Assembly: GCA_951406725.2 (NCBI GenBank)
Contig: OX597835.1
Location: 1,860,001 to 1,924,000 of the forward strand
Direction: 5' to 3'
DNA: 64,000 nucleotides
From: Octopus vulgaris
Taxonomy: Eukaryota
Part shown: piece after piece, positions 21,081 to 52,436 of the stretch
How positions within the stretch are numbered: the stretch's first letter is position 1
Layout of the letters: each line of letters begins with the position of its first letter
The notes under the pieces: model-generated
The model's input: only the letters and a program-made list of their open reading frames with translations
Database searches by the model: none
What the model was told of the DNA's origin: nothing
Program-made: the position numbers and the translations under genes

Positions 21081-21316
21081 TTATTTGCGCAAGTGTCTCG
21101 AAGAAGTTGACCGTCCAGTTGTCTCATCTTTGGAAGCACTGCCTCGTCGAAGTCCTGAATTAATTTGTGCTGATGGTGGAATCATATTTGATTGAACAGG
21201 ATTATTTGGAACTCTAATTTGATCCTTGTTAACCTCAGTGCTAGTGGGGAGACCCCGATGTAGCCTGCTGCTACTGCGTTTCTCTCGCTCTCGTGTTCCA
21301 GGTCGTGTTCCAGACA
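21081..21316 (-). CDS. CSNK1D: CK1 delta/epsilon conserved terminal exon: (M)SGTRPGTREREKRSSSRLHRGLPTSTEVNKDQIRVPNNPVQSNMIPPSAQINSGLRRGSASKDETTGRSTSSRHLRK*
   Basis: Strong acceptor (ttcctttttTcag); phase 1 matches the 52295 donor; EREKRSSSRLHRG aligns with vertebrate ERERKVSMRLHRG. Confidence 0.88.
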
Positions 21317-22143
21317 CTGAAAAAAGGAAAAGGAAAGAAGACATGAAAAAATATCTAAATATAACAATAATGAGAGGAAATTTAAAAAAATTTTTTTTTT
21401 AAATGCTTTAAGTTTCACAGGAACACACAAAACTATGAACAAGTGATATCTGTTACAGGTACTTGTTACATACAGGATATTCACTGCAGTTTCCCAAATG
21501 CTTGAAATTTTGTCATAAACCTGAAGTGACAAACAATGAATGCTCTTCAAAAACGAGAAATCTAACCAAATAATCTATTCTACTGTCAATGTATTATTTG
21601 TGTAAAATAGTTGAAATGGACCAATTTAAATTGAAACAACCAGTAAGAAATAGTGAGTGCATATCTATAAGACAGCAGCTTCTTGGTAGAGGGGGAGAAA
21701 AAAGGGAAGAGAGATTAATTTTTGCTAGGACACGGTTACAAATTGATGGTAGTGCAACAACTGCAAATAGTTTGGGGCAGATTTTGGAATATTTATTCCC
21801 CCAGCACCATCAAAGACACTGGTTGAAGAGAACATCATTGGTAGATATTTTATTGATATTGGAAAGAGATGAACAGAATCATCAACCATGCTAGGATTAT
21901 AAACGAGATTATAAGGCATTTGGTTCCATACACAACCAATTCTGCCAGTTTACTGCTCTTATTTGGTGGGTGGAATTTTAAATATCTTGGGAGAGATGAA
22001 AATGCCATAAGAATGTGTTGAACTTGTTGATGAAGACAGGCTTCTATGAACTTCTATACTGACTAAAGGGTGACAAGAAGCTCCTACACCGACCCACCCC
22101 TGCAAGCTAACCACCATCACCACCACCTCCTCTGCTCACTCAT

Positions 22144-22310
22144 TTAACCTCTTGATATTTAAATCAGCCTCTCACACCTATCTTACAATGTCATTTTAAC
22201 AATAAGCAATCACATCACTGACATCTCAAAGCTAGAAGTTAATGCATGATTAATCCAAAGCAATGGGAATAAATAAGGATTACATTTGAGAGAGTAATCT
22301 GAGTGGCAAA
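22144..22310. mobile_element. Decayed piggyBac-like MITE copy
   Basis: Shares ctctcacacc...acaatgtcatt...aatcacatca...gagtaatctga with copies at 24125-24345, 56051-56538 and 57666-57878. Confidence 0.55.
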
Positions 22311-24124
22311 GTATTTGGACACCTGACGTTTCATTAACTATACAGGTGCTACCTTCATGTCGTGTGCATCTGGAGAAAGCACTAAGAAACTACAATATCC
22401 ACCGACCCAACACACCACCATCATAAGCGAAGACACCTTTAATACTTTACTACAACAGAAGCCAATGTCATTGCCTTTTTAATAGGAAACTTTTCCATCT
22501 AAAAGTCAATTTTGGGTGATTTCAATTCTGACAGTTTTAGTGAGGCAAAAGTTGATAGTGATAGATCAAGATACAGTTAATTAGCTGAAGAATTTATTTT
22601 AAATCTATGAAATATAACCCAACCCACATATCATCAGCAAGGCTGGCACTTGGTAAAATTAAAACAGAGTAGCTTTAATCTTCAACGAGTCCTTGTTTCT
22701 TCTCAAGTCTATGCTGTAAATGTATCTGATTCTAGTGAACAATACAACATGAACATGATGATGATGATGATGATGCAGTGGTGTGGGGGAGAGGTGCAAG
22801 TTTAGCTTTCTTCTCTGTGTGTGAAATAAATAAACTAATCGAAGCTGGTGCCTTGACTTGAAGAGTTTTACCACTGAAGATTATTCTCAGTTGGTTCTTT
22901 AGTAACCAACTGAGAAAGAGTAGAGTACTACAACTACTACTACTACTACCTGCAAGGTGTATATTTCACAGTGTGGGCCTAGCCGTGTGATTTACTTCAC
23001 AATTCCAAAACACCACAGGTAAATGTCTTCTATTGTAGCCTCTGGTTAGCCAATGCCTTGCAAGTGGAATTCGGTCAACAACTATAGAGATGCTCATCGT
23101 ATGTGTGTGTGTGTATTGTGTTAATTGAGCTCTGCCAGTGAAAAGTATGAGTCAAGTTGTACTCTTTTTAAAAGGTAAAGTAATTAGGTCATTCAATAAA
23201 GGTTGGTCAAATAAGTACAAGACTAAAATGTTACTTACTGAGATTGATCTGACTAAAATACAGTTGAATGATCAAACTACTAAAAGAATCACAGAGAAAT
23301 CAATTGATAAACCAACAGAAATTACTTTGCAGCATCAAAATGTACTCCTGCTCAATAATACAATATAAAAGTTTATATCTTTCGCTCTTGAGTATATCTA
23401 AAACAATAGTAGTTGTGGTGGCCAAATACAAAATAAATGCCTGTAACTGAGTTAACCATCTGAAACATTCACACTGAAATCCCCAGCTCTATTTCCTGTG
23501 CACTAGAATATAAAAACCTGTAGAAAAATGAAAATTGCAACAACAAAGTTCCCTGCTGAAATCTACTATAAAATTGCATTTCACACATTGCGCTCAACTA
23601 AGAAAATATTCTCCAAGATGGTAGGGCTCAGTCCACAGGATGAGTGATGAGTAAAAGGAGTGAAAATTCCATGTGTAAATTATAAATTTGGGAGCCCCAA
23701 AATGTTCTTGGCTGGATGTGATCAGCAGGTTGTTGATAAATATAACATGCTTACACAAGACAAATGGTGCCTTAGATGACCAGCGTAATTTCAAGAGAAG
23801 GAGGAACTAAAAACAAAGGTTGAGGATCATTTTTTCCAGATATATAACCTCTAGAGTGTGTTACCTGCTTGCTACAAATAGTAGCCAAAATCACTCTCCA
23901 GCAGCATAAAAAAAAGAGGGACACGTTTGATATTGTTTTGTTGGGTCTGGAGGAAGGAATAGTACCCATGGTCTTCACAGACCCTCTATGACTGATGAGA
24001 AGATTGATGCCATTGTTGCTTAAACTGCTTCAAGCCAACTCCTGCAGAGATCAAGGGGCAGTCAATTTTGATAAGAGGCTTTGCTCAAGTCAAGTGTGAC
24101 AGCACTGTTTCCACTAAGTTTCTC

Positions 24125-24345
24125 TCACTTGTTAGTATTTAAACTGACCAGATCTGGCCTAAATATTCTATCAGTTGTATTTCAAAACAGCCAGATCCAG
24201 CATCTTACACTTACGCTACAATGTCATTTTAAAATTAAACAATTATGCCATCGAAATCTTGAAGCTACGAGACAGTGTACGACTAATCCAAAACAATGAA
24301 AGTAAGCATTACATTTGACAGGATAATCTGAATGGTAAAGGGTAA
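24125..24345. mobile_element. piggyBac-like MITE copy
   Basis: Same body; ends aatctgaatggtaaagggtaaa. Confidence 0.6.
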
Positions 24346-24979
24346 AGGTACCCAGAGAGTAGAGTATGTCTTTAATGGATTCGGTTTAATGAAAGATGTA
24401 CTAGTGGTTGTTGGTGAAGAGAGAGCAAGTCAAAGTAATGAAGAATGTTGTTGCTAATGGTTGTCTCCATTAGTTTCGAAATATTAGAAATGAGTAATAG
24501 GAAAATAATTGGCAAGATCAGAGCGGATTACTTTTCTTGGGGGAGATGCATGCAGAGAATGTAGGAGTGAGGATTGCAAAAAGAAATTTGGTTTCTGTAC
24601 CAGCAGCAGAAGAATGAAACGAGTGGGAGAGACACTACGTGTAATACGACTCCCAGTATGTATATATATGATCATCATCACTTAATATCCACTTTCCATG
24701 CTGGCATGAGTTGGACAGTTTGACAGAAGCAAGCCAAAGAACTGCACCAAGCTCCTCTCCGCTTTGGCATAGTCTTTACAGCTGGATGCTTTCCATGTAC
24801 GAGCACCAAAAAGGTTGCCAAGTAACTTGCAGAACAAAGGTCGTTTAGATGGCAGCTTTGTGCCAGATGAAGAGAACTGATAGAGGGACAGAAACATGTG
24901 TCTTGTAAAGAAGATACATTGTTATTCCAGTCAGAGATGAGAGAGAGAGAGAGAGAGAGTGAAAATGAAAGAAGCAAGG

Positions 24980-25017
<38 letters not shown>

Positions 25018-27535
25018 TGGTGGCGAAGTGTCAGGGCATGTCCTAAAGGTATGGGGATAAGAATATAAATGGGATGGTAAAGCATTTCTGAGGGTGAAGG
25101 AATAGAGAGTTCACATGACTGCAAAGAGGGGATGAGAATGCATGACTGGTGAAACCTGGGTATACAGAAGGGGCAGGGGCAACAGGCTAGCAGCTGTACG
25201 GGTATGTGCCCTAGAAAGAAATGTCCAAGTCACAGATACATAGTCAACTCTGAACAAAATAAATCTTGAGGCATATATCTACACACACACACACACACTC
25301 TCTCATCCTTTACATGTATCACATACCGAGATAGTTTTCTCTCTTGCACACTAAACCTGACTCCTCGTGTATCCACCTCGTCTCTCGGCTCATGTACTCT
25401 CCAACACTTGATACACTCTAAGCTTACACATCCCATGAAGAACACTTGCTTCATTTTCTTTCCAGCCTCCACAATCCTCATACAATTTCCCCATCACTAA
25501 GAGAAAAATTTATTGCTGCCAACAGAAGAAATAACTCTTTGATTTTTCCCCCACCATTCTTATTCTAGCTACTACACTTGTAGAATACTCACTACCATGA
25601 GTTAATGTCACCTGCATAACAAAACGGCCATTAACTACATTTACAGAACCTTCAAACCATTTAAATGAATCTATGCTCATGTGTGCTTTTATTGAGCAAA
25701 TTGTAAAATATCTACCTATATCTATAAATATATTATACATACATACATACATTCATTGTGTTTGTATGTGAGTATAATGTGACTTAAATATCAGTGAAAG
25801 TAGATAGATGTTCTGAAAGCATAGTAGCCAGTGTTGGAACAGACTGAAAAAGACTGAAGGACAAATTGTATGCTTCTGTATAAACTAGTGGTGCATGTTA
25901 GTAAGATGTGAGTAGTGAATGCAGAGAATTCCAGAAGATGAGAAAAATAAAGTGAGCACAAATTAAGTGAATAGAACTGGGTTAGGGTTAGAAACAAGAG
26001 GTGTTCATTCGACCCATCTAAGGGGTTAGTAACTCTTGTTTAAAACTAACCCTAACCGGATACAAACATAATCAGAAGCAGTTTTCAAGAGAAAATTATG
26101 AGTATTTGATGGATATAGAGGATGATAGCTGTACAAAGCAAGTTAAGATACTTGAAGTGAATGGAATATGTGGAAAACAGAGACCTCAGAAAATACACAG
26201 CAGAGTGGCGACTACCGAACTAAGAATATTGAGTCTCACAAAGGCAACGACAAAGAGACAATGATAGGAAAGACAGTTCTTGAGAAGAACCATTCATCTG
26301 TGCAAGAACAGCAAAAAAACCAAAAAAAAAAAACCGAAATGATGGTAGCAACGGAAGCTGGAAAGTATATGTATCCATATTTGTATGTTTGGGAAGAGGG
26401 CAGTAAGTGGAAGTAAATGGAAATTTAAAAGTGGTGATTAGGTAAGAGACACACTTGCTACTTTAAAAGTGTTTTATCAAGATGCCTATGTATGAAGGGT
26501 AGCATCAGATCTATTCCTTGCCAATACATTGTATTTTCAACGTTTCTGTGCAGCCAGCTATCACTGATGCTCCCCCCAGGCAAACTGTTATTGAAGTCCC
26601 TCAATAGGCCTCCTCAGACTGAACAGAGACTTCCCAGTTGGGAACCTCAGTTCAACCAGGAGGATCCAGGAATATACCAACAAATAGTGAATGCAGCAAC
26701 AGCAGATGGCCCCATAATTTTCTTACTGCCACCCATCAATATTACCACCCAGGACTTGATCCCTCTCCTGCACCAGCAAACAAGCAGTTGCCATTACCAT
26801 CTCTCATGCTTTTCATCCACTCATACTAGTCCATCTGTCTTTTGGTCACCTCCTCTTGGTAACACTGCCTAAAATCAAACATCAGAGAGTGTTGAAGACA
26901 TCTCAAGCTTGCTCAGTACAAGGCAGCAACAGCAGTGCTGGTGCCACAATAAAACATATCCAGTACAAACAAGCAGAGATAACAGAGGGTGTAGAAAGTT
27001 GTTTGAACTGAACAAGGACACTATTCACTCAAGCATTCGGGCATCCAGTTGTAGAAACCATGCTAAAAATGGAATGCAGATGCAAGATGTGCTCATCCAA
27101 CCCATCTAAGAGGGTAGTAACTCTCATTAAAAACTAAGTAGGCCTGTGAGGACCTGTCCAGTCCACATCAGCATGGAAAACACAAGTAAAATGATGATAT
27201 ATACAAATTATATTAATTAAAATGCTGAACATTGTCATCTCATGTCCACACTTCATGTTGGCATGGGTTAGAGGTGTTGTCATAATCAGAGTCAGTTCTT
27301 ATTTAGAGTCACTGTCCTCATAGAGAGGTCAGAAGTCCATGCCATGTCCTTCTAATTACCAGCCACTTACAGTGTACTAGAGACACACACAGACACATAC
27401 ACCAAATATACACATTCTTCTACTCTCTCTCCTTTTCCATATGTGTGTGTGTGTTTTATGTCTTTTCTTTGCTTGCACAAGTTTTTCAATCTTACTACAA
27501 GCCTCTTACAACACCGATATGCAAGGTACCGATAT

Positions 27536-27571
<36 letters not shown>

Positions 27572-27717
27572 CATCATTGCTTAACATATGCCTTCCATGC
27601 TGGCATGGGTGGGATGGTTTCACAAGAGCCAGCCAGGCAGAAGCCTGCACCAGACTTCTGTGACTGTTTTGGCAGGATTTTTACAGCTGGATGCCCTTCC
27701 TAACACCAACCACTCAG

Positions 27718-27752
<35 letters not shown>

Positions 27753-28601
27753 TAAGAGGTACACTTGGGCAAGTGTCTTCTACTATACTCAGACTGGCCA
27801 GCCATGCCGTGTCAGTGAAATTTGGTAGATGCAATTTGAATGGAAGCCTATTGTGTGGGATTCCGGGTGACATCACACTGGCAGTATTTAGGGGACAGTA
27901 ATGCTCATTTACACACATTATATCTTGCAGCCCGACAATTTTAATTTCAGTTGGTGATGACCAGTGGAATAAAAAATATCACACTAAAAAACAAAGACTG
28001 GCAATAGGATGGCCATCAAGCCATACAAAACTAACTCAAAATGTCTGGTGGAATTCCTGTCAACATACGGAATGCATATGTAAACACACAGATACACATT
28101 AATGGTTATTTGTATAGAAACAGAGATTCCAAGCAGGAAAGGAAAAAAATGTTCAATCAATGATTTGATATGAACCCATGGTCAAAATCTTGTGCAGTAC
28201 AAAACTGAAACATGTAGCTTTGTCATGCTGGAAAGCGTAAACTAAAACCAATGTTACATTCAGAATTAAAATAGGCTGGAATAACAAATTTAGAAAGACA
28301 GAAGAAGATATCACAGAAGTTTCCAAAGTGAGTGAAACGTGGGAAGCACACACATTTCTCAGTGTGTGCCAATTTTCTTTCTACATGCATGCGCACACGT
28401 GTATAAATGGCTTATGAGGAAGCAAAGAGGGATGCATGCCCACAAATTTCATTCGAAGCATAGCAACCATCCAAAGTGCCTGTTGTGGAAAAAAGAAATC
28501 ACCAGAGCAGTATAAATAAGAAAATATGTAATTATTATTTTTGAAGTTGGAGAGGAAGTTAAAAAAATAAAAATGAAAATACTGTTGTTTTGTTTTTTTA
28601 A

Positions 28602-29215: not shown

Positions 29216-29249
<34 letters not shown>

Positions 29250-29370: not shown

Positions 29371-31734
29371 AATTGAACCAGTGCATGTGTTATTAATATT
29401 GGTGTAATGGCTCTCCCTAGGCACAACAAAGGAAAATATTGTTGCAGTAGATATATGTTTATATATCATGTTCCTTTTCGTCTTGAGGGAGAGTAATGAA
29501 GATTGAAGTTTTGAAATAAATGAAGACAAAAAATGTTAAATTTCATCATCCACCACAACTTTGAAAATGTTCTTGTTCCTTTAAGGAGGAGCATGCTTGT
29601 ATAGTTTAATAATTGCTAGAATCCTATGCAATATTAAAGGCAATAAGTATGAGGTGGGTGACGCAGCACCCAAAAGCTGTTAGCAGCAGAAACGGTGGCA
29701 AGATGGTTTTTCTAAGGCTCTGAAGATCAATTTCTTCTGATAAATATGATAATTTACAAAAGCAAATGTGATAATTATCAAACTAAATAATAAGAAAAAG
29801 AGGAGGGGAAATAAAATCAAAGAACCTCATAACAGATTGGGATGTGAAAATATGCTTACAAAGTAAGGTTTCAGTCTTCTTCTTGTCTAGCAAACTCAAT
29901 ATTTTTTTTTCAACCTGAAATCTGAAGTATTGTTGGAAAAAAAAAAAAAAAAGAAAAAAAAAACAAAGCATTAAAACTAAAAATAAAAAAGTTTTAAAAA
30001 AATAAAACAAAGCACAAATATTAACATTGATTTGCTACAACATAAAATGGCTACAAATGCAACAGAGTTAATAAGAGCAACAACGATGGAAGAGTCTACT
30101 TCTAAACTGAAAAGCTCAAAATTAACAACATCAGTACTGGACAGATGAAACAATTATACTAATTATACTTATTGCTTTAATTATATGCAAGATTAAATGA
30201 AACGAAGTGTTTGCAAATATAGTCACTTAAGAATTATATAAAGGAACATGTATTGACTCTATTTAACAGAGTGAAGACAGCAGTAATCATTCACTCCTTA
30301 ACTACCAAACATCTGATGAAACATTGTTATTTATTCATAATAAAACAGACAGAAGATGACATTTTGGGGAGGGGAAAAAAACACACACAGATGTCACCAT
30401 AGATGAACATAGACCTACAGTCATTTTACTGAAGAAAATGGCTAAAACAAATTATAAAATATATTTGCAGCAAATAACTTGCTATGGATATAAAATGTGA
30501 CTTTATGCATGAAGCTCAAAAGCATAAAAACCATAATTTTCATTAACTTTTCACTGAGACAAAATGGAGAAAAAAAATTATGACAGAACTCTCAAGATAT
30601 ATTTTGCATAAATTAACAAAAAGCCGTCATTAAAAAAAATTAAAAATAAAAGCAATATATATGTTCGATCTTTACCAGAGCCATGCTGAAAGTCAGATGA
30701 GACATCTGGTGTTTTCTTGTCACATTAAAGTATGTGAATACTAAGTCTTTTTTTGAGAAAGACATATTCTAAAAGCTAGCAAGATTGTAGCAGAGAAAAA
30801 GCAAAGAAAAAAAAAGAAACTGCTCAAATAAAATAAAAGAATAACAAACAGTGTACTGCTATTTTTGCAAGGCATATCAGCATTGCATCTTAGTCTATCA
30901 CCACAATGAGTTAGTATTTAAAATATACACTTCTTAACTATTTCAATCATCTTACAAGACCATTAGAATTCCAGATGCTAAAACTGCCTTTCACAAGGCT
31001 TACACCATTCTATCAATGAAACAACCACATTTAGAAAAGACAAACATTATTTCAGTTGTATTTTGCCATAGCAAACTCCACAGAAGCAAAGATATTTCCC
31101 TGCATTTAAACAGCTTTTTAGGACTGAAAACACAAAACAAACACCGAAACTAAACTGATTTGACAGTGTTATCAAATTATGTAATGAATAAGAATTCATT
31201 TCTTCTTCTCGCTGCCATTTGAAGACTGATGGCTTCAGTTGCTATCAATTCTAAGACATCAGATAAGGAAATAACCAGCGAATCAACACACCTGCCCTAT
31301 ATTTAACAAATCAAAATATTAAAGCAACCAGTGAAAAGATTTCTAACCTTGGAACAACAACACACACTTCCTTAAAAATAAATCAATAGCTTTAGTCAGC
31401 TGATCAACCGTACAAGACTGGTACTTATTGCCAAACTGACAAGAATGGAATCGAGAATGTAAAGAAATAGCAGAAAGACACAAACGTTTCTGACACCTAT
31501 AACAATAAAGTCATGCAAAATACATATAATTTGATACTGATGATAGCCCCAAGTAAGTCTGACACAGCAGGCTTTATTATCAAGCCATTCCAGCCATGAC
31601 ATTCCTCTTTTTAACTTCTACTCAGTATCTGAAACAACATTCTCCAATGCATCTCTTTGGCAGGATGTGATAAGGGGAAACTGGTCTTCTGTTTCTTGTA
31701 GGTTGAGCAACCAAGCCGAGGTTCTTTTGCTGGA

Positions 31735-31757
31735 TCACAACGAAAATGACCAACGAA
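31735..31757 (-). CDS. Candidate short terminal exon (I)RWSFSL*
   Basis: Branch-like ttctgac plus atttcccattcaccag acceptor; followed by ~2.3 kb of repeat-poor, UTR-like sequence. Confidence 0.3.
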
Positions 31758-32394
31758 CTGGTGAATGGGAAATGTCAGAAATTAACAGAGAACAACTCAA
31801 ACGTACCAAATTACTGCCAGATATAACAATCCTCTCTTTCATGGCAACATTAGACAGTCTTAGTTTCAATAGAATAATGAAATGGAAACAAAAGCAGACT
31901 AACCTAAACTGTCGACAAAACAGATACAAAACAAAACTGAAGATTATTACAAGGTTAACATCCCTTTTAAACAACTCCCTAATCATTCATATTTTAATGA
32001 TAGCAATGGAACTAAAACCTTTGATTTCTTGCAGAGACACAAAGACCACAAATTTAAAAAAAATGCTGCAATTGAGTGAGTAAATAGATTGAAAATTCAA
32101 TATTCTTTCAGGAAGTTTACTTCTTTGTCTGTAAGTACTTGACAGCAAAAAAAAAAAAATTTTTTTTTTTTACCACTCCACATTGCAAAATGCTGTCAAA
32201 TACTAGGTCCAAACCATCCAACATTTAGGTACTGAGTTTATGTTGGAGACAGAGCCAATGGTATTTGGTAAGTGCCAGATTATCAGAATTATAACTATAA
32301 ATAAAATTCATTTGGAACAGCTACAGAATGAAAACAAGCAGAGAAGATTGAAACTCATTGTTCTTCAAGTAACAAAACATCAAAGGTAACTGCA

Positions 32395-32417
32395 CTATAC
32401 ATCACTGTCCATCTTAC
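32395..32417 (-). CDS. Candidate short terminal exon (S)KMDSDV*, or a recursive AG|GT splice site
   Basis: Long pyrimidine tract tgtttgtctttttctttatactaattcag followed by GTAAGATGGACAGTGATGTATAG. Confidence 0.4.
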
Positions 32418-33124
32418 CTGAATTAGTATAAAGAAAAAGACAAACAAAAAACAAAACCCTTGTAAGTTTTTAAAACAATATATTCACCTTATTCTGCAAG
32501 TTTGAAATTATAGAATCTTTTAATTTAGACTCATGCTCAACAATGGTTGCAATCAAAAATTAAAATGACAGATTTTTCAAGTTGAGCATTGTTGGTAATA
32601 ATCTGATAAGCTTCAGCTCTCAGCTTTTCAATCCACTGCTGGTATACAGTCACTTTAAACCAGACTTTTTAGTTACGTTTAGAAAAGACTCATTCGTTAA
32701 TTAAATCAAAAGCCCTGATATGTAAAATTCTAAAGACAGAAGGTAATGTTCTGGTGCCTAGGCCAAGTGGTTAAGTTTGCTTTCAAACACTGAAGTCCTG
32801 GGGTTCAAACCCACTAGATGGCATCTTGGACAAATGTCTTTTATCATAGCTTCTGACTGACCAATGCTTTGTGGAAGCCTGCCAGACTGATTGTACTAGA
32901 AATTCAAAAAATCCAGCCTTGTTACGTAGTATCACACTAGAAGCTTACATAAATGGCATCTGTGTCAGTGGAATGGTCCACCACTTACATTCCAATTCAG
33001 TGAGCAGATAGTTCAGCTGATTAAGCAATTGTGCACTCATGAGTGAAACTGACAGAAATATAGGGTGGTGGGGGAGGTGGAATCATTAGAGTGTCACAAA
33101 AACAATGCACGAGGGTGTTTGTTC

Positions 33125-33288
33125 AGTCTCTTTACATTCTGAGTTCAAGTCCCACTAAGGTTAACTTTGCTTTTCATCCTTTTGTTACAAGGAAATAAAA
33201 GCACCAGTCAAGAACTGGTGTCAGTAGTGTCAACTAAACCCGTCTCCTCCAAACTGCTGGCCTTGTGCCTAAATCAGAAATCATTATT
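33125..33288 (+). mobile_element. Nin-like SINE fragment
   Basis: ttctgagttcaagtcc...actttgcttttcatcctttt. Confidence 0.6.
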
Positions 33289-35459
33289 TCTAATAGTTTA
33301 GAACAGTTGGAGAGAAATATTTTCATGAAGATTGACCGGTCAGTATGTGTACTGGTAAAACAATTTGACTTCTTCTTTGAGAGAGAAAAATAGATGTGAA
33401 TTAGATAACATTAAATTCAGATGATTTCAGAGTCACTAATGATAATAATTCACACATAGAAGTGTCACACAAACGACACCGTAAATAGACAAGTTCAACT
33501 GAACTTATAAAATTAAAGTAGTTGCTGTTTAGTTCCAAATTCAAACTCATCATGAATTTCAGTTAAGACCATTCTGATTTATTTTCCATAGTGTACTTAG
33601 GATACCATCATCCACTGTGTCCATTTGAGAAGTTTTGACTATTATTTGAGGGAGACTTAGATGCTATTTTTAACATATCAAGCAATTATACAAAAGCCCC
33701 TTCACTGGTTTATTAAAAAAAGGATATTTTTAATGTGAAGTTGAAATCAGTTTTTAATATTTACAGAAAAACAATTTTAAACTAAAATAAATTTTTTTTT
33801 TTTCAAATTAGTGGCTGATATAATTTCTTTTTGCCAAATATTTAATCAGAATGAATAATTCTTAGAAAAATAAATGAAATATTAAAACCCAAATGCAATA
33901 TACTAATAATGAACTCAATGTTTAGCAATTTCATCAAATAAATATTCATGCCTAATCAAAAAAGAGTGTCTTACCAAAATGTAGAATTTTAATCTTTTTA
34001 AACTTGCAGAGAATAGCTTTAGAACATTAATTTCTTTTTATATGAACAGGAAGATGAAGGTACTCACAACAAACTGAATAATATCATTAGACTTTCAATA
34101 TATTCTAATGAAAAATAAAATTTTAAATGTACAATTCTTAAACGTTAGGTACAATAGTTGGGAAGCTTAGCTGCTGGACAAATGACCCCTTGATTCAAGT
34201 TTAAACACCACAAGAGTGAAAAACTCACTTCTAGGTAAACCACAGAGCCTGTCTGACCTTATTAAAATGGTTAACGATAATTGGAAGAATAGCAAAAAAA
34301 AAAGTACAACTGATCCCAACAGTATACAAATATTTAAATAAGGGAGGGAGAGAAACCCCCCCACCATCCCACCCACGTGTAAAAATGGATAAAACAAACA
34401 ACTGAAAATTTTTTTTAAAAATGTCAAATTATAATTTTATTGGCAGTTATCTTAATAGCAAACTGATTCCATCATGTGATACTGAAATCACCAACAAAGA
34501 CATTCAGGTAGGCTAATATCTCATGGCCACTTCATATGAGTGTGAGTGCGTGTGTGTGTGTGTGTGTGTGCATGTGTGTGTGTGTGTAACACCTGTACAA
34601 AGTCCATGTTCACACACAAATGAATAAGGTTTATTTGCAACACTGAGTGTGATGTGATGAAGAATTTCAATTTAAAAAATAAAGGCATATATAATAGCCA
34701 GAGTTTGTAATCCATTCTATACTGTTCTGTAAACAATATGACAATTTATTTTACAAATTTTCTTGGAACAGACTTCTTTCAATTTTTTTTTTTTCCAAAA
34801 AACATATTTTTCTCTCCAAAATTTATCACTTTTCACAAATAGACCCAGCCAAATCTACAATTCTATTTATTTATTTTCAGTTTGATATATTTTTTTCAAA
34901 TGTTAAACTATGTGCAGAAAATACGTTTTAGTTTGAAAACAAAACAATAGTCCCAAATTAACAGGTTCTATTGTATGTACAACATATATTGTTTGTGTGT
35001 GTGTACTCTTTTAGAGTTCAAGTTAAAAAGAATGAGTAATAATCTATTTATTTGGCTGGAATGGTAATGGTTGTTTGAGGCCATTTTATTTTTAATAATT
35101 TTGAAGTTTTACAATTAAAAATATGAAAAAATAATTTCATTTCTCTGAATTAGACCAAAAAACAATTCCTTTCACCTTTATAAACAGAGAATGTTTGTGT
35201 ATGTGGAAGTAAGTTTCACATTCTAGCAGCGTATTTAATACAACAAAATATTACGCTGTGTGTTGAGTAGAAACTGAGAAGCCAATGTACACACACTGAT
35301 CGGGTTAAATGCAGTAGGAACAATGCTTTCTTTAGCTTCACCACAGTGATAGTAGCAATAGACAAACCATTAGGCTCATACCCAAGACTTGGGGCTGATC
35401 TCTTATTTTTCCCCCTAATTGCAAAATCCCAGTGTCTTTTCCTCTTTTAATCCACCATA

Positions 35460-35719
35460 TTATGGTCTATGCTTTGGAACCATGCTTCGACGTTGTTCTG
35501 GCAGAATTCCACGTAACTTTGCGTTATCGTGTGAATTTCCAATGGGCAAAGGCAAGCCCGAGGCGCGGAGACTCGGCCGATCTCCAGTCGATGGTGTGGC
35601 CAGTCTGCTCTCACTCATTTTACTATCAGTTATGGCTTCAAAGGATTCCGAGTCCCTGGTGGCCAGGGACAGACGCGTAGGTAGTTTATCCTTACACCGA
35701 GCTTGAAGACCACGAGAAT
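35460..35719 (-). CDS. CSNK1D: Alternative terminal exon of CK1 delta/epsilon: (N)SRGLQARCKDKLPTRLSLATRDSESFEAITDSKMSESRLATPSTGDRPSLRASGLPLPIGNSHDNAKLRGILPEQRRSMVPKHRP*
   Basis: Acceptor cttcttttctgtcactcag; 86 codons to TAA in phase 1; GC- and CpG-rich island in AT-rich intron; Ser/Thr/Arg-rich like a CK1 tail. Confidence 0.75.
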
Positions 35720-36678
35720 CTGAGTGACAGAAAAGAAGTCTGAATCAGCAGACGAAAATTACTCCTGGAGTTAGAGAAGAGGTGAAAAGGAGGGAGGGAA
35801 GAGGAAACAAGAAAGCCAGAAGGAGTTCACACCCTTGTTGAAATGGGGAGGAAGAGGAGGAGGACACACCATTTCATGCTTGAATGCAACACATGCTCAT
35901 GGAGGGAGGAGGGAGTTGGACTTTTTTTAAACTGGTTTTCAGCAAAGATAAACACGTGGACCATGCTGCCCTCAGAACAGATGAACATTTATAGTTAGAC
36001 TAAACTCCAAAGCTGTTAACTGGGAATAAATAATGTTATCAAATATTAACAACAAAATCGTATTTACTGTAGCAGAATTCAGGAGACAAAAACTAATATT
36101 TTCATGCATTGACAACCATGGCTGAATGTCTGGAAATCTCATTATAATCATGCTATTGTAAGTGTGTGTATATACACATTCACACACATGTGTGTATATA
36201 AAATCAGAATTTAGGTAAAAACTTCAATGCCTGAGGCTCTTTTTATATGAAAGGAAATGGTTTTAGAAGCCCAAGGGAGAAAGAGAAACAGAATTCAGGT
36301 AAAAATGTCATGCATGGAAAGAATTAAAATAAATAAAACAAAATGAACAAAAGGCAAAACAACTAATTTGAAATTACAGTTAACGAGATTCTATGTATAC
36401 TCATGATTTGAATGAAAGATTGAGAGTTTCGACAATTTTAGAAATAAAGACAGTGAGAGAGTATGTGTGAGACTTACTCATGCATAAATGATACCTGGTG
36501 TTTGAAACAATTTTCATAATCAACATGAAATATTAATGTGTGTGTGTGTGTGTGTGGGTGAGTTTAGAAGTGATGGAAACTGGTCAACAATGCCCTAACA
36601 AAAATTCAAGCAAAATAAATTTTCTCAAAGTGTGTGTGTATATATGTATATACACACACACACATATATATATACAGT

Positions 36679-36966
36679 GGAGGCACATGGCCTAGTGGTT
36701 AGAGCAGCGTACTCGTGGTTGAGGGAATGCAGGTTCAAATCTCAGACTGGGCGATGTGTGTGCTTATGAGTGAAACACCTAAGCTCCACGCGGCTCTGGC
36801 AGAAGGTAACGGCCGAACTTCCGCTGACTTTTGCCACAATTTACTCTCACTCTTTCCTCCTGCATCTTGCAGCTCACCTGCAACAGATCGGCCTCCCGCC
36901 CAGATGGCGAACCTTTATGCCATGGAAACCGGCCCTATGAGCCAGGCGTGGCTTGAGAAGGAACAC

Positions 36967-36978
<12 letters not shown>
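36679..36978 (+). mobile_element. tRNA-derived SINE of a separate family, inserted in a (TA)n tract
   Basis: A-box tggcctagtggttaga, B-box ggttcaaatc and (CAA)n tail. Confidence 0.75.
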
Positions 36979-37001
<23 letters not shown>

Positions 37002-37310
37002 CATCAAGTGTTTTAAATCCGGATTTTGTAGCAATTAACGGGGTTGGCCAGATCTACCAGAATGCTATTAATTCAAAATAATGTGAATAAATAAGTGTTA
37101 CTTTCAACCTTATAACATGGATGTGAAAGGGTTGTGGGGCATCTTGCAGGCGTGAATCCACTGCAGCATGCTTCGGCTGTCGTCTTTGCTAACCTCAGCA
37201 ATTACCCACGGCAACAGCACCTGACACATTTCACTTCAGAAAAACCTTCAAGGCATTTCACACACTGCAACCCTGCAGGAAGATCTTTGAGAATGCACTC
37301 ACTCGCTTAC

Positions 37311-37493
37311 CTGAGCTTATTTTCCAACGAATAGTGATACATGCACCTGCACCACTGTATACGTCCTCATGCGCTCGTTTGCTGTACTGCCCAGTCACTG
37401 ACCGCACACATTTTGGCATGCAAAGCAACACCGCTATTCAAACTAATCCGAATAGCAGACTGTCCCGTATGCACTTCAACAATCCTCGCTCTC
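37311..37493 (-). other. Candidate 183-bp cassette/poison exon; phase-1 reading (R)ERGLLKCIRDSLLFGLV*
   Basis: Acceptor ttttgcttatcag and consensus donor CAG|gtaagc; CpG-rich island; stop codons in all three frames. Confidence 0.4.
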
Positions 37494-38429
37494 CTGATAA
37501 GCAAAATTTCTCCTCAACCATGCATTTCTTTTGTCTCCTTAAATCGTTTGTTCCCCCGGAATATCATTATGGAGGGGAGTGATGTAGTGCAGGTTGCAGG
37601 CATGAAGTGGATTCAATCCACCACAGCCACATTTAAATTAACAGTTCAACAGAACTTTTCTCACAGTGGAACAATGGTTTTTTCTTTTCTGTGACAGCAG
37701 TTTTACCTATGTCAGATGCCTTTAGCTAGGCCAAAATAATGCCTTCACCACTTGACCCTTATAACCTTTTCTACTTCACCAAAAGCTAGAATAGAGATAT
37801 CACAGTACCACCAACGAAGCCCATTGTTCTCAATGATATGTCTATCCTTCTGGACAGTTATAAAAGCAAGAACCCCAAGCAAAACTCAGTTAGTGATTTG
37901 GTGACAACTTAATCAGTTAGTTAATGAATGACAAACTTGAGTCAGAGACAGCTACCATCAGTTAGGGAGCAGAATGCTTGAACCATGATCCAAAGCAAGG
38001 CAAGCTACTAAAGACAATGGTCAAATGGAGAAATGAAATTTACTGCCAGCAGCTATGAGACCCAACTTCCCACACTCTCTCACTTTGTCTTCTCTGCACT
38101 ATTACCATATCTCTCTCTATGGTTTACTACTATAATATAAACACACAGGCCAAACTTTTTTTTTACTTTGCACAACTCTAAAATTTTATTCACCTGCCCG
38201 TCAAGGCAAGGTATATTCAATGTAACAGTAAATAAATATTTTTCACAACTTCAACCACTGTTCTTTCATCTTTACACACTGATTACGACTCTTGACATTC
38301 CACCATACTGTGTATCGACTATTGTCTTCCTATATTATTGTTGACTAAATAATCTTCATCCATTACAGGGTTTAAACACTGATTAGTTCAGAATAAATTT
38401 TACTTATGCTCATAAACTATTTTGAAGCA

Positions 38430-39200
38430 CAGATTCAGGTTGAGCAATTTTATTTTATGAGTTCAAAAAGAAATGCAAGGTAGTAGAAAATGCTTGCAAT
38501 ATCAACCAGCATTTGGTCAGGAGACTGTCAAAGAATGTACAGTAGCTCTGGTTCAAGAAATTCTGAAGGCCATTATTGAAGTAGACTCACATAAAACAAT
38601 TCAAGAGCTTGCAGAAGAACTAACATTGACCATTCAAGAGTCAGTGGGAAGTCAAAAGATTTCAACAAATGGACACAACAAACTAAATGACAAAATAATT
38701 GCCAGCATGAAGTCTTATCTGAGCTTCTTTTGCACAAGAGAAAAGTACCTATTCTTTTGACTGCGTTGTGAAGTGATGAAAAATGGATTTTATATTAGAT
38801 CCAAATGTATTCCATACACTGGCTGAACTAAGGTGAATCACTAAGACACTTTCCCAAACCAAAGCAGTAATTTCAGAGAATTATGGTTAATGGCTGTTGT
38901 TAAGTAGAATCTTCTGCCATTTCTCAAATGCTGAAACCATCATAACAGAAATATTACTAGAAAATCAATATAATGCATCAAAAAATTACAATATCCAGCA
39001 CCGCACAATAAAAAAGGACCAATTCTCCATAACAATATCTAACCACAAATTTGTACAGAAGACTGCAGAAACTGAACAGACTGGGTAAGGACACAACTTC
39101 AGCCAGTTTACTCCCCACACCACTTTCTACCCCTCTCTCTCTCTCTCTCTCTGACTATAACATTTTCAAACATCTCAAAACACCTTCCACAAATTCATTG
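38430..39200 (+). mobile_element. Highly decayed mariner transposase
   Basis: ILFYEFK, LKAIIEVDSHKTIQELAEEL, SDEKWILY and SDYNIFKHL remnants. Confidence 0.7.
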
Positions 39201-39325
39201 GTTCTAGGATTCCCCAAATTATGTGTTACAAGAATGGACCCATTTCTTGTGGCAAAAATATTTAAGTTCTGATGGTTATTTCATTTATATAATTTATTCA
39301 GAGACATAACTGCTTTCAAGTTGAT

Positions 39326-44639: not shown

Positions 44640-44699
44640 TTAATTGCAGCATGCAAAAAGGTTTAAATGTACAGTGTCTGCTCCTCCTCCACCATTCCC
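44640..44699 (-). CDS. Candidate terminal exon: phase 0 GNGGGGADTVHLNLFACCN*; phase 1 (R)EWWRRSRHCTFKPFCMLQLISATA* ending at 44623
   Basis: Acceptor ctcttattctattttcag; purine-rich GGA-repeat start resembling an exonic enhancer. Confidence 0.35.
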   Translation of the reverse strand, partial: GNGGGGADTVHLNLFACCN

Positions 44700-46611
44700 C
44701 TGAAAATAGAATAAGAGAGTCTAAGCAAAGTCCCTAGAAGCTTAAAATGCCAAGCACCATGCTAGCAACAAATGGAATTACTCATTGGCACTAAATAACA
44801 AGACATGTCAAACCTTAACATCCCAAGAAAGAGAGGGAGAAAAAGAGAGAAGAGAAACAAAAGAAGGAAGAGAGAGAATTGTCACAGAAGGTACAAATAG
44901 AAAAAGTAAAATTAAAAAAAAAAAACAACAATTTTTATTGGCTTTTTAGACTGAGATTGATTTAGAATAAATAAAGCAACAGAAGAAAATGTTTACAAAT
45001 TAAAGTGAATAAAAAATTTCAATTAAAAATGTACAAATTATCTCAATATTTCTGAAGGTTTACAACTCTACCCTATAAATTATGTTAGAGTTCATTTGAA
45101 ATTTCAACTGGATTATAATAGTTAAAACTTGCCTTCTCTTTTGGCACTCGGATTGCAAATGATAAAATGAATGTATATAAAGGGAGAATGTGTTTGTGTG
45201 TACATACATACATACATCATGCAGAGTCTGTTTTCCATGGTGGCATGGGTAAGATGGTTTGACTGGGGATGATGAGCCAGAGAGCTACACCAGGCTCCAG
45301 TTTGTTTTGGACTGGTTTCCTCAACTGGATGCCCTTCCAAACACCAATCACTCCACAGAGTGTACTGGGTGTCTTTTACACATCAGTGGCACATTTACAC
45401 ACACACACATATATACATAAATACATATACACACACATATATACACATATACACCACATATGCATATACATACATGTGTACACACACACACGTATGTATA
45501 TATTATGTAACAAGATGTGATGGTCTGTCCTTCAAATGTAAACTCTTCCGTACTAATCAAGAAAGTGAGGTTTCTCACATATGCATACTCTGACCCTCAT
45601 TAATATGATAAGGAGATGAAATGAATAAATACCGAAAGTGTTGTCGTTAGATTGTAGATACAAAGATTTGAATACTAAAGCATTTGCCACTTCAATGTTT
45701 CAAATTATTAAAGAAACCTTGAGTATAAAATCAATGGGGAATCCAGAAAACTGGTTTGGAATTCATAGCACTTGGCTTTCATACTCTTAAGACATCCAAC
45801 AAAAATATATCTTTTCTGAAATTCAATTGTCCAAATTGTACTTTACAACAACACAGGTATTTTATCAGTTTTATCAATTCAGTCATTATTTGTGATACGA
45901 GATTACCTCCATATTTTCAAAGAAGTTGGTTTTGGTTTTTTGGTAACCTAATTAGTTGACTGAATAGAAATGTTCAGAGAAACCTCTTTTGCAGATATAT
46001 AAAATTTATATATTAAAGATTTAAAATTCAATGTAAATAGCATTAAATTTCCCTGAAATCCAATTATTTTGTACCACACAACATAAATCTACATGAACAC
46101 AACCATACTGCTATGCCAACAAAATGGATCATACTTTATTTCCAATTGTACTCAATATATATAGATATCAAAATGAACAACCCTAAAGTACCAACATTTT
46201 GGTCTCTAAAAAAAAAAAAAAATAAATAAAAACCCAATCAATGTAAATGATAAAAAAGACAAAAGAAGCATATTGCCAAAAATATAAAGGTTTATGAGGA
46301 AGCAGAGTAGAACAACAATTTCAATACCAAAATTAATTAAAAAAGCAAAAAATTGAAACTGAAAACAAAGCGCAAAGTTTTTTTTTGTTTTTTTAAAATT
46401 CTTCTATTCGCTTCAGCCTTGGAGTTTGGCCATATTGGAGCACTGCCTTTAAGGGTACAGTTGTTCAGATCAACCCTCGTACCTGACTGGTACATATTTT
46501 ATAGATGTTCAAAGGATAAAAGCAAAGATGACTGGAAATACTGCTAGTTCCTTTCTTTTTTTTTTTTAATTTCTAAGATTGAGGTTTTAAAGAAAAGCAA
46601 CAAAATCTTAC

Positions 46612-46616
46612 CTAAA
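46612..46616 (-). other. Candidate 5-nt micro-exon TTTAG, or a recursive splice site
   Basis: ccttttcttttttttttcttccttttcatttgttaccag|TTTAG|gtaagat: very strong pyrimidine tract and consensus donor. Confidence 0.35.
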
Positions 46617-46908
46617 CTGGTAACAAATGAAAAGGAAGAAAAAAAAAAGAAAAGGCAGGTAAATATTCTATTCTAATTGGTTACTCAAATATGAGGATTA
46701 TTATCAGAATGACTGACACTGAATGTAATAAACAATAGTCAACACATTCTCCTAGTGTGCAGTTGACTATGTCATGACTTGGTATTGTTTAGTGTTAGTA
46801 TTGTACAAGTTTTAATTAAATATTAGGATCGGCCACAAGTCAGTCCTAATCAAGCAATTGCAGCTACCTGACCATTTATCTTATATGCAGACAATACTCC
46901 TCAGTGCT

Positions 46909-47052
46909 TAGCTGGTACTTATTTTTATTGACCCTGAAAGGATGAAAGGCAAATTTGACCCCAGCGGAATTTGAACTCAGAACGTAAAGACAGATGAAAT
47001 GCTCCTAAGCATTTCACCAAGCGTGCTAACGATTCTGCCAGCTCACCACCTT
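46909..47052 (-). mobile_element. Nin-like tRNA SINE, 5' half, well preserved
   Basis: Minus strand: ggtgagctggcagaatcgttagcacg...ctgagttcaaattccg...tttgcctttcatcctttc...aagtacc. Confidence 0.8.
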
Positions 47053-48126
47053 ACAATACAATTCGTGTATAATATTTATTGTGGTTTTCTTAACATGATT
47101 CATTATTGTTCCCAATAGCAACCACTCTCTAATTTACAGATTTCATAGTGAAATCTCATTTATTCATAAAAGTGATATGACTAAAACATGTTCTTTCATT
47201 TTCAATCTTCTTAGAACTAGTTCTGACTATTTGAGTTTACACAGCAGACTAAAGACCCAATTAGTAATTTAATTGATAACAGTCTGCTTCATTACATAAC
47301 ATATAAATAACAAAGTGTTTAAAGTGAAATGGTATGTCAGCCCTTAAAGGAATACACAAAATACATACTTTTTAAACAAGAGATCTGTCTGTGGTAGAAC
47401 TGTACAAAATACAAAAATTTATAACAATATCTCAGGCAACAAAGATAAGAACAAATTGGCAATCAACCATCCTTAGATAAAAGTGAAACAAGTGCTCAAC
47501 AAGGAGGTAGTAGGGGAGATGCGGAGACGAAATTCTTTCAGCTTTATGTACCTGTGATATCATCAATATTGGTTAAAAGGTAGCATTAAACCACCAAGGA
47601 GAGCCAAAGGTTGATGTATAATATTAAAAAGAGAAATCGCAAAGATATGTAGTAATTATAACCACAAGTGACCGAGAGGTAATTTAGATCAGGAGTTAGT
47701 GTAATATTTGTAAAACTTTCAATAAGCTGCAGAAGGTAAATGACAATTCAAAATAAGTTAATCCGCAAACCTCAGAATCAAGTTCCAGATTTATACACAC
47801 ACACACACACACACACAACTCTAACCAAATGGTTAAGAAGTTTGCGTCACAATAATAATAACGATGCATTGGACTCGATTCTAGAGGATGGCATCTAGGG
47901 TGTCTTTTACTATGGCCTTGGGTTGACCCAAGCCTCATGAGTGAAACTGGGTCAACAGAAAGTGTGTGGAATCCCACCAGGTCTGTACCTGTAACTCAAA
48001 TTGCATGTATCAACCCTGCATCACACTGATTATGTCTGAAGACTATGTTAGGAGTGCACATGCTAATGGAATACTCACTGTTGAAACAAGAACAGATCGC
48101 TCTCCCTTAATATATATATATATTTA

Positions 48127-48328
48127 TTATTCTTTTACTTGTTTCAGTCATTTGACTGTGGCCATGCTGGAGTACTGCCTCAAAGGGCTGTCTACCAAAT
48201 CCATTCACAAGACTTTGGTTGGCCTGAGGCTATGATGGAAGACACTTGCCCAAGGTGCCACACAGTAGGACTGAACCCAGAACCATGTGGTTGGGAAGCA
48301 AGCTTCTTACCAGACAGCCACACCTGCA
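48127..48328 (-). mobile_element. CORE-like SINE, internally deleted, head-to-head with the next copy
   Basis: Reverse complement of the head and tail of the 10993 family. Confidence 0.85.
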
Positions 48329-48369
48329 GTGATGCAAACAGGAAAAACAGAACTCAAAATATGAATATA

Positions 48370-48750
48370 GGCACAGGAGTGGCTGTGTGGTAAGCAGCTT
48401 GCTAACCAACTACATGGTTCCAGGTTCAGTCCTACTGTGTGACACCTTGGGCGAGTGTCTTCTACTATAGTCTCAGGCCGACCAATGTCTTGTGAGTGGA
48501 TCTGGTAGATGGAAACTGAAAGAAGCCCGTCGTATATATGTGTCTGTGTGTCCGTGTTTGCCCCACCCCTCACTTGACAACTGAGGCTGGTATATTTACG
48601 TCCCCGTAACTTAGGTTTGCCAAAAGAGACCGATAGAATAAGTATTAGGCACACAAAGAATAAGTCCCGGGGTCGATTTGCTCAACTAAAGGCAGTGCTC
48701 CAGCATGGCTGCAGTCAAATGACTGAAAAAAGTAAAAGACTAAAAGAATA
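48370..48750 (+). mobile_element. Full-length CORE-like SINE
   Basis: ggcacaggagtggctgtgtggtaag ... gactgaaaaaagtaaaaga tail. Confidence 0.9.
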
Positions 48751-48905
48751 TGTTTATTTTTATAGATATTTAGTGGAAGCAACAGACTGACTCAAGGTTT
48801 GAGAGTTTTGTGCATTAGCACTCATCAAATTAGTGTCAGCAGACGAAACTGTCAGAACTCGAGTTACTCTGTTGCTTCCATTAAATATTAACATAATAAT
48901 CTATC

Positions 48906-48938
<33 letters not shown>

Positions 48939-50818
48939 TATTATGTTTTGCAAACATATTTAGTCTTATTGTGAAAATAGAACCTGTAGTCAAACAGGTT
49001 TTTCAGCAGCCAGAGAGAAACGGTTGAGTCACTGGATGAGTTTCAGCTTCCGTTAAAGCCAATTTCAATTGAGATATAGTAAGCACTGTATCACGTGTGA
49101 TGAGGTTAACCTCGACTTTACGATAAATGTATTATCAGCTTAGACCAGACACTGTGTCACTTTTCCATACGTCTGAAGTCAGAAGTGGAGCTCCTATGTA
49201 TGACACTTTGAGGGTGGGTGGCTGTGTAACTTGTGGGAAGTTATCCTCAGACTGGAGAACTGGTGCAAAGGCTTATAATACATTGGAATGTTCTAATAAC
49301 ATCCAAGGGCCATATGGTGTTGTTTAACAGCTTTAGTAACAGTGAAAAGTTGGCTGTATTTTACTACAGCACCAACAGTAAATACGAGGAGGCTATTGTT
49401 TAACCACAGGGGTTCCAGATTCCTAGTGGTGCTAAAAATATGCTTAGGAAACATGACTACTTTTTTCACAGTTTTGATCTCATACATTTAGTGTCAATGT
49501 TCCCCTTAAAATGCACAGCTAACTTTGTCCTGCTGTATAAATAAAGTCAGACCTAACTTCATTAAGATTAGATTTGTCAGTCTTTTACTAGGTCTTCTCA
49601 GTAAACTGAAGAAAGTAACTGAATACAGATGATAACTCTAATGAAAGGTAGAATTGATTCTTTGCCTTCACCTTTCTCACAGGTGGGTGAAAGACCTATT
49701 GTATAACACTGAGGCTAAATGTTCCTTACTGTTATCAATTTTATTTCAATATATGTGCTGGTTTTATGTATGTGTGTGTGTACATACACATAGATATATA
49801 CACACAAATCCATGTGCATTGGATATACAAGCTCATACGTGTGTGTATATGCACATACGTATACACAGATATAAACACAAATATGTATTTCTGTATAAAT
49901 AGACCCGATATCAATATAAAACTGTGTATGCATGCACATAGAGATAAGCAGGTTATCAATCCATACCATACTGTCACACAGCCAATATGTAAATAGGATG
50001 CATTCATATATAAGAGGATATATAAATGATCAAACAAACTGGCATGAAAGTGCCATTTAAATTTTTTTATAAATAGTACAAAAATCATAATACTTCTTGT
50101 CAGAATTTGGGTGACGACACAATCTGCCATTGTAGCACCAAGTTATGTTGAAAGAATATACTATTTGCACAAAGATGGTGTCAGTTTAATAACTGCTTAG
50201 AATTTACTGATTCACCAACACAGCATGAAAAACATGCTACAACGATACAAAGGAGCAGAGATTGTCTTACTACAAAATAAATTCCAGTTACTACAGTTTT
50301 GGATGATGGTTGGTCCTCATCAGAGTTTGTTTGACTCGCATAAGTATATCTGCAAGTGCCATGAGTTAAGTGTACTACTAAGTGTGTATAAGAGTACAAA
50401 GAAGAGAAAGAAAAGGTATCCAAAACCCAAAAGTTTATAAATGTATTTGATGCTGAGGTTTACTTGCCACTGTTGCAAGTTCCAAACATCATCATGTTTG
50501 TATTGAGGAACATGATGATGGAGATGTTTTCCTATCTTAGAGGCTCGGCTTATAATAAGTGAATGTATATATGTATGTACATACACATATATATGTATAT
50601 ATTGTTAAAGCTGAGAAACTACATTAGGCCAAGAAAGAGTTTCCTATGAACTCACTTATCAAACTTTGCTAAATATGTTCACAGTACATCAATACATACA
50701 ATCACAAGTGAGATGCCTAGTGGTGCTAGTGAAGTTTCAGCTTTAGCTAACTTTTAAACATTTAAATTTTATACATATATATATAAATAAATACACACAC
50801 ACAATATATATTATTTTA

Positions 50819-51152
50819 GGAATATCTTGAAGCACACACATGGAACTATAAATAATAGCATGTGAACATCAGGTTGAAAATCCCTTTTGGATAGAAAAAG
50901 TCAAAGGCTGCCAGTGGAACTTGAACCCACATCTCCTGTAGACAGGACAGGCATTTTACCACTGTACCAAAGCAATCCTTCAGATTTCTCTATCCAGTTT
51001 AGAAACTTACCAACAACAACTGTATGTTGTACATGTCTACAGAAGACATGGGTTCAAGTCCCACAGGCAGCCTTCAACTTTACTGAAAAGGGTTTTCTGA
51101 CCCAATATTTACATGTTATTTAAAGCTTTATGCGTATGCTTTGAGTTATTCC
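50819..51152. repeat. Inverted repeat (~120-bp arms) containing a tRNA-like sequence
   Basis: Arm 50819-50944 pairs with 51034-51152; degenerate tRNA-like fold at 50906-50977(-) with a gggttcaagt B-box. Confidence 0.75.
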
Positions 51153-52294
51153 AAAAAAGAATTAGTTCACATTCTCAAGAAAGTTTATATAATTCTTATG
51201 ACATTAACAATATATATATATATATATAAATATATATATATCCCACTTAAAATAGCTTTGGCAGTTAAGTGCTGAAAATCCGACCCTAGTCCGTGATGTC
51301 ATCAGACCAGAATAATATTGGTTAACTGAGTATTGGTTCCTCAAAACAAAATTCAGCTCAATATACACATGTACACATAAACCAAACAATATTGGGTTGT
51401 CTTTAATTATACAAGTCAAATAATGCTACTTGATTGTTGACTTCTACATAATGTAGAAATTCCTTAAGCTTCATGGTTGTTTTTGATTTGATACAAACAC
51501 AGATTGTCACAGAAAATTCACTTGTAAGTTCATTCATAATTTGCAACTTCTGATATGGCAGTGAAATGGGTACAGAACATTTGTTCCTTAATATTAGTAA
51601 GACATTGGTACAGTTTCATGCAATAAAAGGTATTGTCTAGTCTAGTTGGTAAGAGGATTAGAAAATTTGAGTTTGAAAACAAGTTTATTATTGTACTAAA
51701 AATCTATATTATTTCTATAGAATTTGGTGGCTGTGTTATTGGTAGGGATTATAATAATTCTTTCTTTTTTTTTTATCTAAATTACAAACATTACAACAAT
51801 TTCATTGGACAATTTAAATAAGAATTTGAAATCAGAAAAGATACAACTGAATTATAGAGTAACTTATTGAGCACTCTTTCCAATCATGAAACATTAAATC
51901 TTGACTTAGACTACTTTAAAAATTGGTCAGTGAAAATATATAAAGTTCATGAAAATAAGAAAATTTGCTTAATATCTAAGTAATTAGTAATTAGTTAAAA
52001 CAGTAACAACAGTTATTAGTAACTTGAAAAATTTTATCATGGTCAAACAAAATGTATTAGATTTTTTTTTTTTGTCTGAAGTAATGTAATGTAAAATAGC
52101 TTAAGCATAATTGATAGGGTAGAGTTGTAGCTAATTATTTATCATATGGCAATTTTTCAACAGGAACTACAAATAAATTAATTTAAATAATTATAAAACA
52201 TATAACTGTTCATTTACATTAACATGTCTCTAATATTGTTACACTATTTTTGAGAGTAAATATATTTTAAATTAAAAAGTCCAGATTTACTTAC

Positions 52295-52436
52295 TGCCAT
52301 AATCGCCACTGGGAGAGGCTGCCACAGCTACTTGATCAGATCGCATACGGCCAGCAGTGGTCGTACCTTGTAATCCTCTAGCTGTCGAGCTGTACATTTT
52401 GCGATCTCTATCAAAATCATCATTTGACCTACCTCC
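52295..52436 (-). CDS. CSNK1D: CK1 delta/epsilon proximal tail exon, 142 bp: GGRSNDDFDRDRKMYSSTARGLQGTTTAGRMRSDQVAVAASPSGDYG
   Basis: Acceptor tttttgtcttgcag, phase-1 donor A|gtaagt; resembles the vertebrate tail segment (TRGLPSTASGRLR-like). Confidence 0.92.

Follow-up and report, generated by a model that had tools for sequence, protein, structure and literature searches.

Two conserved alternative last exons very probably exchange most of the regulatory tail of an octopus CK1 delta/epsilon kinase

Kinases of the CK1 delta/epsilon type set the circadian period and act in Wnt signaling and in cell division, with the C-terminal tail as their main regulator. In mammals, the delta1 and delta2 splice forms of the tail differ in autoinhibition and in PER2 phosphorylation (PMC11474029; PMC9794997), in agreement with what an earlier note on the locus described here had stated about tail autoinhibition and the two forms. 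The sequence SQIP is present in mammalian CK1 delta1 and absent from delta2; it is required for polarization of the centrosome in T cells and, in vitro, is not required for EB1 binding and does not suffice for it (PMC3257584). Splicing of the CK1 delta/epsilon tail is known from vertebrates and from many insects, and the described cases change 16 residues or skip internal exons (PMC9794997; PMC11474029). Molluscs and octopus go unmentioned in the main text of PMC9794997, and we found no description of an alternative molluscan CK1 tail in the open literature, the excerpts of PMC12049834 included and subscription papers being outside the scope of the search; nor did the open literature yield a report of recursive splicing in octopus.

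The octopus locus resembles mammalian CSNK1D in that one kinase domain is supplied with alternative C-termini and splicing toggles a motif of the SxIP type (PMC3257584), but it differs from delta1/delta2 in exchanging 77-85 residues through two separate, unrelated last exons, with the RLHRG sequence lost in one of the forms. Similarly, as in insect dbt (Pyrrhocoris apterus dbt-iso1 to 4), splicing of the tail alters predicted phosphorylation sites, whereas the insect gene skips exons 9 and/or 10 and the octopus gene swaps its last exons (PMC9794997). The third likeness is to the SxIP plus-end trackers MACF, CLASP, APC, and TTBK1/2, in which S/T-x-I/L-P lies in a basic, Ser-rich, acid-poor, and disordered stretch (PMC4834103); unlike these proteins, the octopus tail holds a single motif, with Leu, and its EB binding and tip-tracking are predictions from sequence.

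The window, a stretch of 64,000 nucleotides of Octopus vulgaris DNA, has on its minus strand a CK1 delta/epsilon gene represented by its 3' part, in which five exons are letter-identical to a database gene model (P0001). The kinase domain of this model is nearer to the delta and epsilon structures in the PDB (2.8e-196 and 8.1e-189, respectively) than to alpha (2.1e-157). All features given below are on the minus strand. The first kinase exon, truncated by the window end (63885..64000; P0001 from residue 75), has its donor after 63885, and is followed by two kinase exons with CAG/GTAAGT borders at 59291..59519 and 56948..57118 (P0001 from residues 113 and 190, respectively) and by the final exon of the kinase domain at 53125..53273 (P0001 residues 247-295), with a phase-0 donor. 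The first exon of the tail (52295..52436; 142 nt), which is 100% identical to P0001 and P0002, ends in a phase-1 GTAAGT donor that serves both tails. The landmarks given in the earlier note can be found in the sequence: GTAAGT follows the donors at 53125 and 52295, in phase 0 and phase 1, and an AG stands at 10 out of 10 acceptors. From the phase-1 donor, the reading frame behind 35719 extends over 85 codons to a stop at 35462-35460, and that behind 21316 over 77 codons, RLHRG included, to a stop at 21083-21081.

The same note took the interval for one 31-kb last intron, a view that has to be corrected, for two further exons of P0001 lie inside it. These cassettes of 31 nt (47369..47399) and 62 nt (29860..29921) had been overlooked, and one database gene model, P0001, includes both together. 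Joined as 47399-47369 and 29921-29860, they add 93 nt, leave the frame intact, and yield a tail identical to that of P0001; either one alone shifts the frame. Neither cassette has a match in the three distant animal loci described below (L001-L003). Judging from the P0001 gene model, the existence of the two cassettes is likely but unproven, and they are likely a young, minor addition to the gene.

The shared donor is joined to two different terminal exons, the upstream one at 35460..35719 and the distal one at 21081..21316, the latter encoding the RLHRG tail homologous to that of mammalian CK1 delta. A search for proteins containing the shared exon gave 5 longer proteins among 67 candidates. 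The shared exon continues into the 35719 tail in P0002 and P0005 (O. bimaculoides), directly into the RLHRG tail in P0003 and P0004, and through 31 extra codons into the RLHRG tail in P0001, whereas P0009 represents a distant homolog of the shared exon spliced to a distant 35719-type tail. P0004 is taken as spliced because the whole protein of 422 aa derives from a Logan contig of 1509 nt; P0006, which runs from the intron into the 35719 exon, was left out of the count of splice joins. The evidence for one donor with two terminal exons (P0002, P0005, and P0009 versus P0003 and P0004) consists of gene models and of proteins derived from transcripts, in part those of other species. The isoform with the 35719 tail is already contained in automated annotation (P0002 and P0005). 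Hexamers of the form A[AT]TAAA occur 8 nt and 5 nt past the two stops, but, with a background of about 2 per kb, poly(A) signals are not discriminating here.

Conservation of the upstream tail is deep. When 1.84 billion representative proteins were searched with the 35719 tail, 10 matches were obtained, 8 of them at 50-57% identity. Homologs at 42-54% identity were found, and in a tree of 12 rows they fall into about five deep groups. A scan of metagenomes uncovered 4 loci, of which 3 are genuine (P0014 duplicates L002); the remaining one, L004, was discarded as a chance match (69% GC, E 9e-5, the motif alone). In 3 of the 4 loci, the alternative exon lies behind an AG in phase 1. The contig of a distant animal (L001) contains a homolog of the shared exon (335-464) with a phase-1 GTAAGT donor as in octopus, an alternative exon of 89 codons (acceptor 2251), and an RLHRG exon of 76 codons (5837-6066; acceptor 5837), in the same order as in octopus, within a span of 5.7 kb. 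We infer that the distant homologs of the 35719 tail come from other molluscs. Across the 12 rows, 14 out of 100 alignment columns are invariant, including R-L-A-T-P and, within S-x-[I/L]-P, the Ser and the Pro, although RLATP is kept in L001-L003 by construction, because these loci were found with the RLATPS pattern. The maintenance of an invariant core across animals that are about 50% alike in the tail points to a separate, old function.

The two tails have no detectable relation to each other (hhalign score of 9.8, compared with a median of 10.1 for shuffled sequences), leaving unsupported the idea that one last exon is a duplicate of the other. Neither tail has a match in Pfam or, searched alone, a significant one in the PDB, and the ESM Atlas returned no usable match for P0009 or for the tail of P0002. 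The 21316 exon, with 26% Ser/Thr, aligns weakly to mammalian CK1 delta (residues 358-401 of 6pxn_A). Collectively, with both joins present in database proteins, the 35719 tail kept in distant animals, and exon order and phase kept in L001, the part of the earlier note that proposed two long alternative last exons is borne out: the locus is very probably an old two-way switch between last exons, by which the greater part of the tail is exchanged, and the likely products of the gene are two CK1 kinases with different final ~80 residues.

The 35719 tail is basic (19% Lys/Arg), rich in Ser/Thr (20%), and predicted to be disordered; an AlphaFold2 model built with 11 rows reached a mean pLDDT of 57.8 and a pTM of 0.13, and 5 out of 85 residues attained a pLDDT of at least 70, a low confidence that fits disorder without proving it. 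Within this tail, S-G-L-P (35550..35561) is a candidate EB1-binding site of the SxIP type. In all 14 rows, about 11 of them independent, [ST]-x-[IL]-P stands 15 residues past the R of RLATP, with Ile as the third residue in 4 rows and Leu in the 10 others, Octopus included. In the printed sequence contexts, a basic residue is found within four positions before the motif in 14/14 rows, and acidic residues are missing from the six positions before it in 14/14 rows and from the six after it in 12/14, the Octopus tail being clean on both sides. The published rules for EB binding by SxIP motifs comprise an S/T-x-I/L-P core, a basic residue before it, and acid-free surroundings (PMC4834103), and the S-x-[I/L]-P of the 35719 tail conforms to them at the level of sequence. 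As shuffled versions of the tail contain the motif 7-21% of the time, the case for EB1 rests on its conservation, which could also serve a partner other than EB1. The Octopus RLHRG tail has no SxIP consensus and places N-M-I-P in line with mammalian S-Q-I-P; the RLHRG tails of L001 and P0003 are likewise without a consensus motif there, and that of P0004 has two matches to the core whose context is not clean. A complex predicted for the kinase domain and the 35719 tail scored 0.01, which speaks neither for nor against any of these readings.

With a conserved switch and an SxIP motif in one tail only, we read the locus as a choice of two forms, one with the RLHRG tail and the other with a tail that would likely bind EB1. 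The full reading, namely, two conserved, unrelated last exons behind one donor, with the upstream tail predicted to bind EB1, has in our estimate a probability of roughly 0.55. The choice would be made by competition, with splicing to 35719 and cleavage and polyadenylation behind that exon set against a skip to 21316. Because the two tails are alike in being basic, rich in Ser/Thr, and disordered, both may become autophosphorylated, each damping the kinase in its own way, and the predicted binding of EB1 by the upstream tail would draw the kinase that carries it to the growing ends of microtubules. That S-x-[I/L]-P recruits EB1 and that phosphorylation nearby releases it is a tentative proposal, which we put at a little less than an even chance. 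More speculative, and on balance unlikely, is the wider notion that an ancient second tail of molluscs makes a clock and Wnt kinase into an EB1-bound kinase of the microtubule tip, with an on/off use of SxIP like that of mammalian delta1/delta2 having been reached independently.

The two-way switch is also compatible with a conserved 35719 block that, under control by phosphorylation, inhibits the kinase or docks substrates, or that serves as a site for another partner, the SxIP motif being incidental. This is a reasonable, if not the favored, alternative: the invariant core, with R-L-A-T-P and several Ser, is rich in potential phosphorylation sites, CK1 delta tails are known to inhibit in an isoform-specific manner after autophosphorylation (PMC11474029), and EB1 binding in vitro can do without SQIP (PMC3257584). 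Against it stands the retention of the Ser, Ile/Leu, and Pro of the motif in every row in a basic, acid-free context. Could the 35719 exon, functional elsewhere, instead have decayed or gone unexpressed in Octopus and be a relic there? The longest stem in the tail tree (0.66) does belong to Octopus, which also deviates from the consensus at G-G-R and K-G-S, but the reading frame is open, the window sharing its frame and stop with P0002 and P0006, 3 of the 85 residues differ from O. bimaculoides, and all 14 invariant columns are retained, making a relic most improbable.

The earlier note went further than a two-way switch, envisaging, with the caveat that the short units could be chance, a multi-way cassette with functional tails and 3' UTRs behind the majority of ten acceptors. 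Behind the eight short candidates at 50349, 49532, 46616, 44699, 43755, 37493, 32417, and 31757, the phase-1 reading frames comprise 18, 3, 0, 24, 5, 17, 6, and 6 codons, and in the same order the acceptors rank 186, 100, 21, 3, 75, 472, 24, and 154 among 1645 AG sites, by a crude matrix set by hand from generic frequencies. Three of them (44699, 46616, and 32417) thus look good, acceptor-like sites scoring at least 2 number 101 on the sense strand versus 50 on the antisense strand, weak-scoring extra exons can be modeled here, as in P0001, and inclusion of just the 31-nt cassette would give access to other downstream frames. Moreover, a low score does not disprove any individual site, because one constitutive exon (57118, -0.05) and both modeled cassettes (47399, 1.6; 29921, 0.7) score below 2. 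Nevertheless, the counts are close to those of composition-matched simulation, which also takes up most of the strand bias: units with a score of at least 2 and at least 6 codons number 69, not above chance given a mean of 56 in 60 Markov simulations, and acceptors scoring at least 5 number 21 compared with 16.9 +/- 4.5, so that choosing eight such units requires nothing beyond chance.

Protein and locus comparisons point the same way. None of the six database proteins with the shared exon terminates in a short unit (0/6), and among 87 comparisons of peptides with L001-L003, the four that stand far above shuffled sequences all come from the two long exons, with one short peptide marginal (46616 frame 1, 40 versus 38). 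These loci are too distant to reveal young exons confined to octopus, to which the comparison is blind, since the modeled cassettes have no match there either, and L001 alone spans the whole interval. The sole candidate among short proteins with the shared exon (P0007, 1/1) proved to be genomic read-through rather than a spliced form, and short-tail isoforms may possibly sit inside the 90% clusters of P0001 and P0002, which have 3 and 2 members, respectively. The repeat-poor sequence said to follow several of the short units was recovered for 32417 and 31757 (1.5 kb with 0% repeats, against a median background of 9%, counting repeats within the window only) and is not clear for the other 6 of the 8; as the 35719 stop precedes 32417 and 31757 by 3.0-3.7 kb, they are presumably inside or adjoining the 3' UTR of that exon. 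Use of the short acceptors is therefore unsupported, a multi-way switch with many tails is improbable, and the eight units probably belong to the background of intron or 3' UTR sequence.

The two-way switch, with a predicted EB1-binding upstream tail, bears on how CK1 is regulated. A splice difference of 16 residues alters autoinhibition and clock speed in mammals, and octopus swaps most of the tail, thereby offering a natural tail-swap pair for testing the roles of CK1 tails and, with EB1 binding via S-G-L-P, a specific prediction. If the more speculative notion of an EB1-bound tip kinase is true, the choice of last exon would switch the location of the kinase together with its autoinhibition. 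Upstream of S-G-L-P, the R-L-A-T-P motif (35589..35606) is a candidate site for proline-directed phosphorylation, and its R-x-x-T-P arrangement presumably resembles a DYRK-type site.

Among the eight short acceptors that the earlier note had proposed as extra tail units of the CK1 delta/epsilon gene, acceptor 37493 on the minus strand lies 183 nt upstream of the top-scoring donor of the interval between the shared exon (52436-52295) and the RLHRG last exon (21316-21081). All three frames of the intervening segment (37493-37311) contain stops, and this segment would therefore be a poison exon, if spliced in, rather than a last exon. Two further short acceptors on the minus strand combine a polypyrimidine tract and AG with GTAAGA, which follows directly at 32417 and after 5 nt at 46616/46611; AG|GT after a polypyrimidine tract is the pattern of recursive splice sites. 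The 2 observed sites of this type compare with 0.3 expected, and 2 of 60 simulations reached 2, a threshold picked once the two sites had been seen. No such recursive-like sites were found in the homologous metagenome loci L001-L003. Alternatively, 46616-46612 could be a 5-nt micro-exon bearing a stop.

The acceptor at 44699 (minus strand) has the third-best score in the interval. Joined to the phase-0 donor at 53125, it would yield a 19-residue end with two Cys close to the C-terminus, reminiscent of lipid-anchored CK1 forms; support for an end of this type via 44699 was not found. A minus-strand acceptor scoring 6.1 with a 135-codon phase-1 ORF (25087-24681), absent from the earlier list, extends into simple repeats and is probably due to chance.

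Left unspliced, the donor at 52295 (52294-52287, minus strand) adds two more residues, then a stop, and P0007, a database protein from another species, shows the same type of read-through at the shared-exon donor. Unlike in Octopus, read-through stays open in L001, so that the early stop at 52295 may mirror just the donor consensus.

Interspersed repeats, as judged by within-window matches, are nearly absent (one 54-nt match) from about 10 kb (approximately 29430-39320) around the alternative last exon (35719-35460), a tract which may be a sign of an extended 3' UTR together with flanking regulatory sequence.
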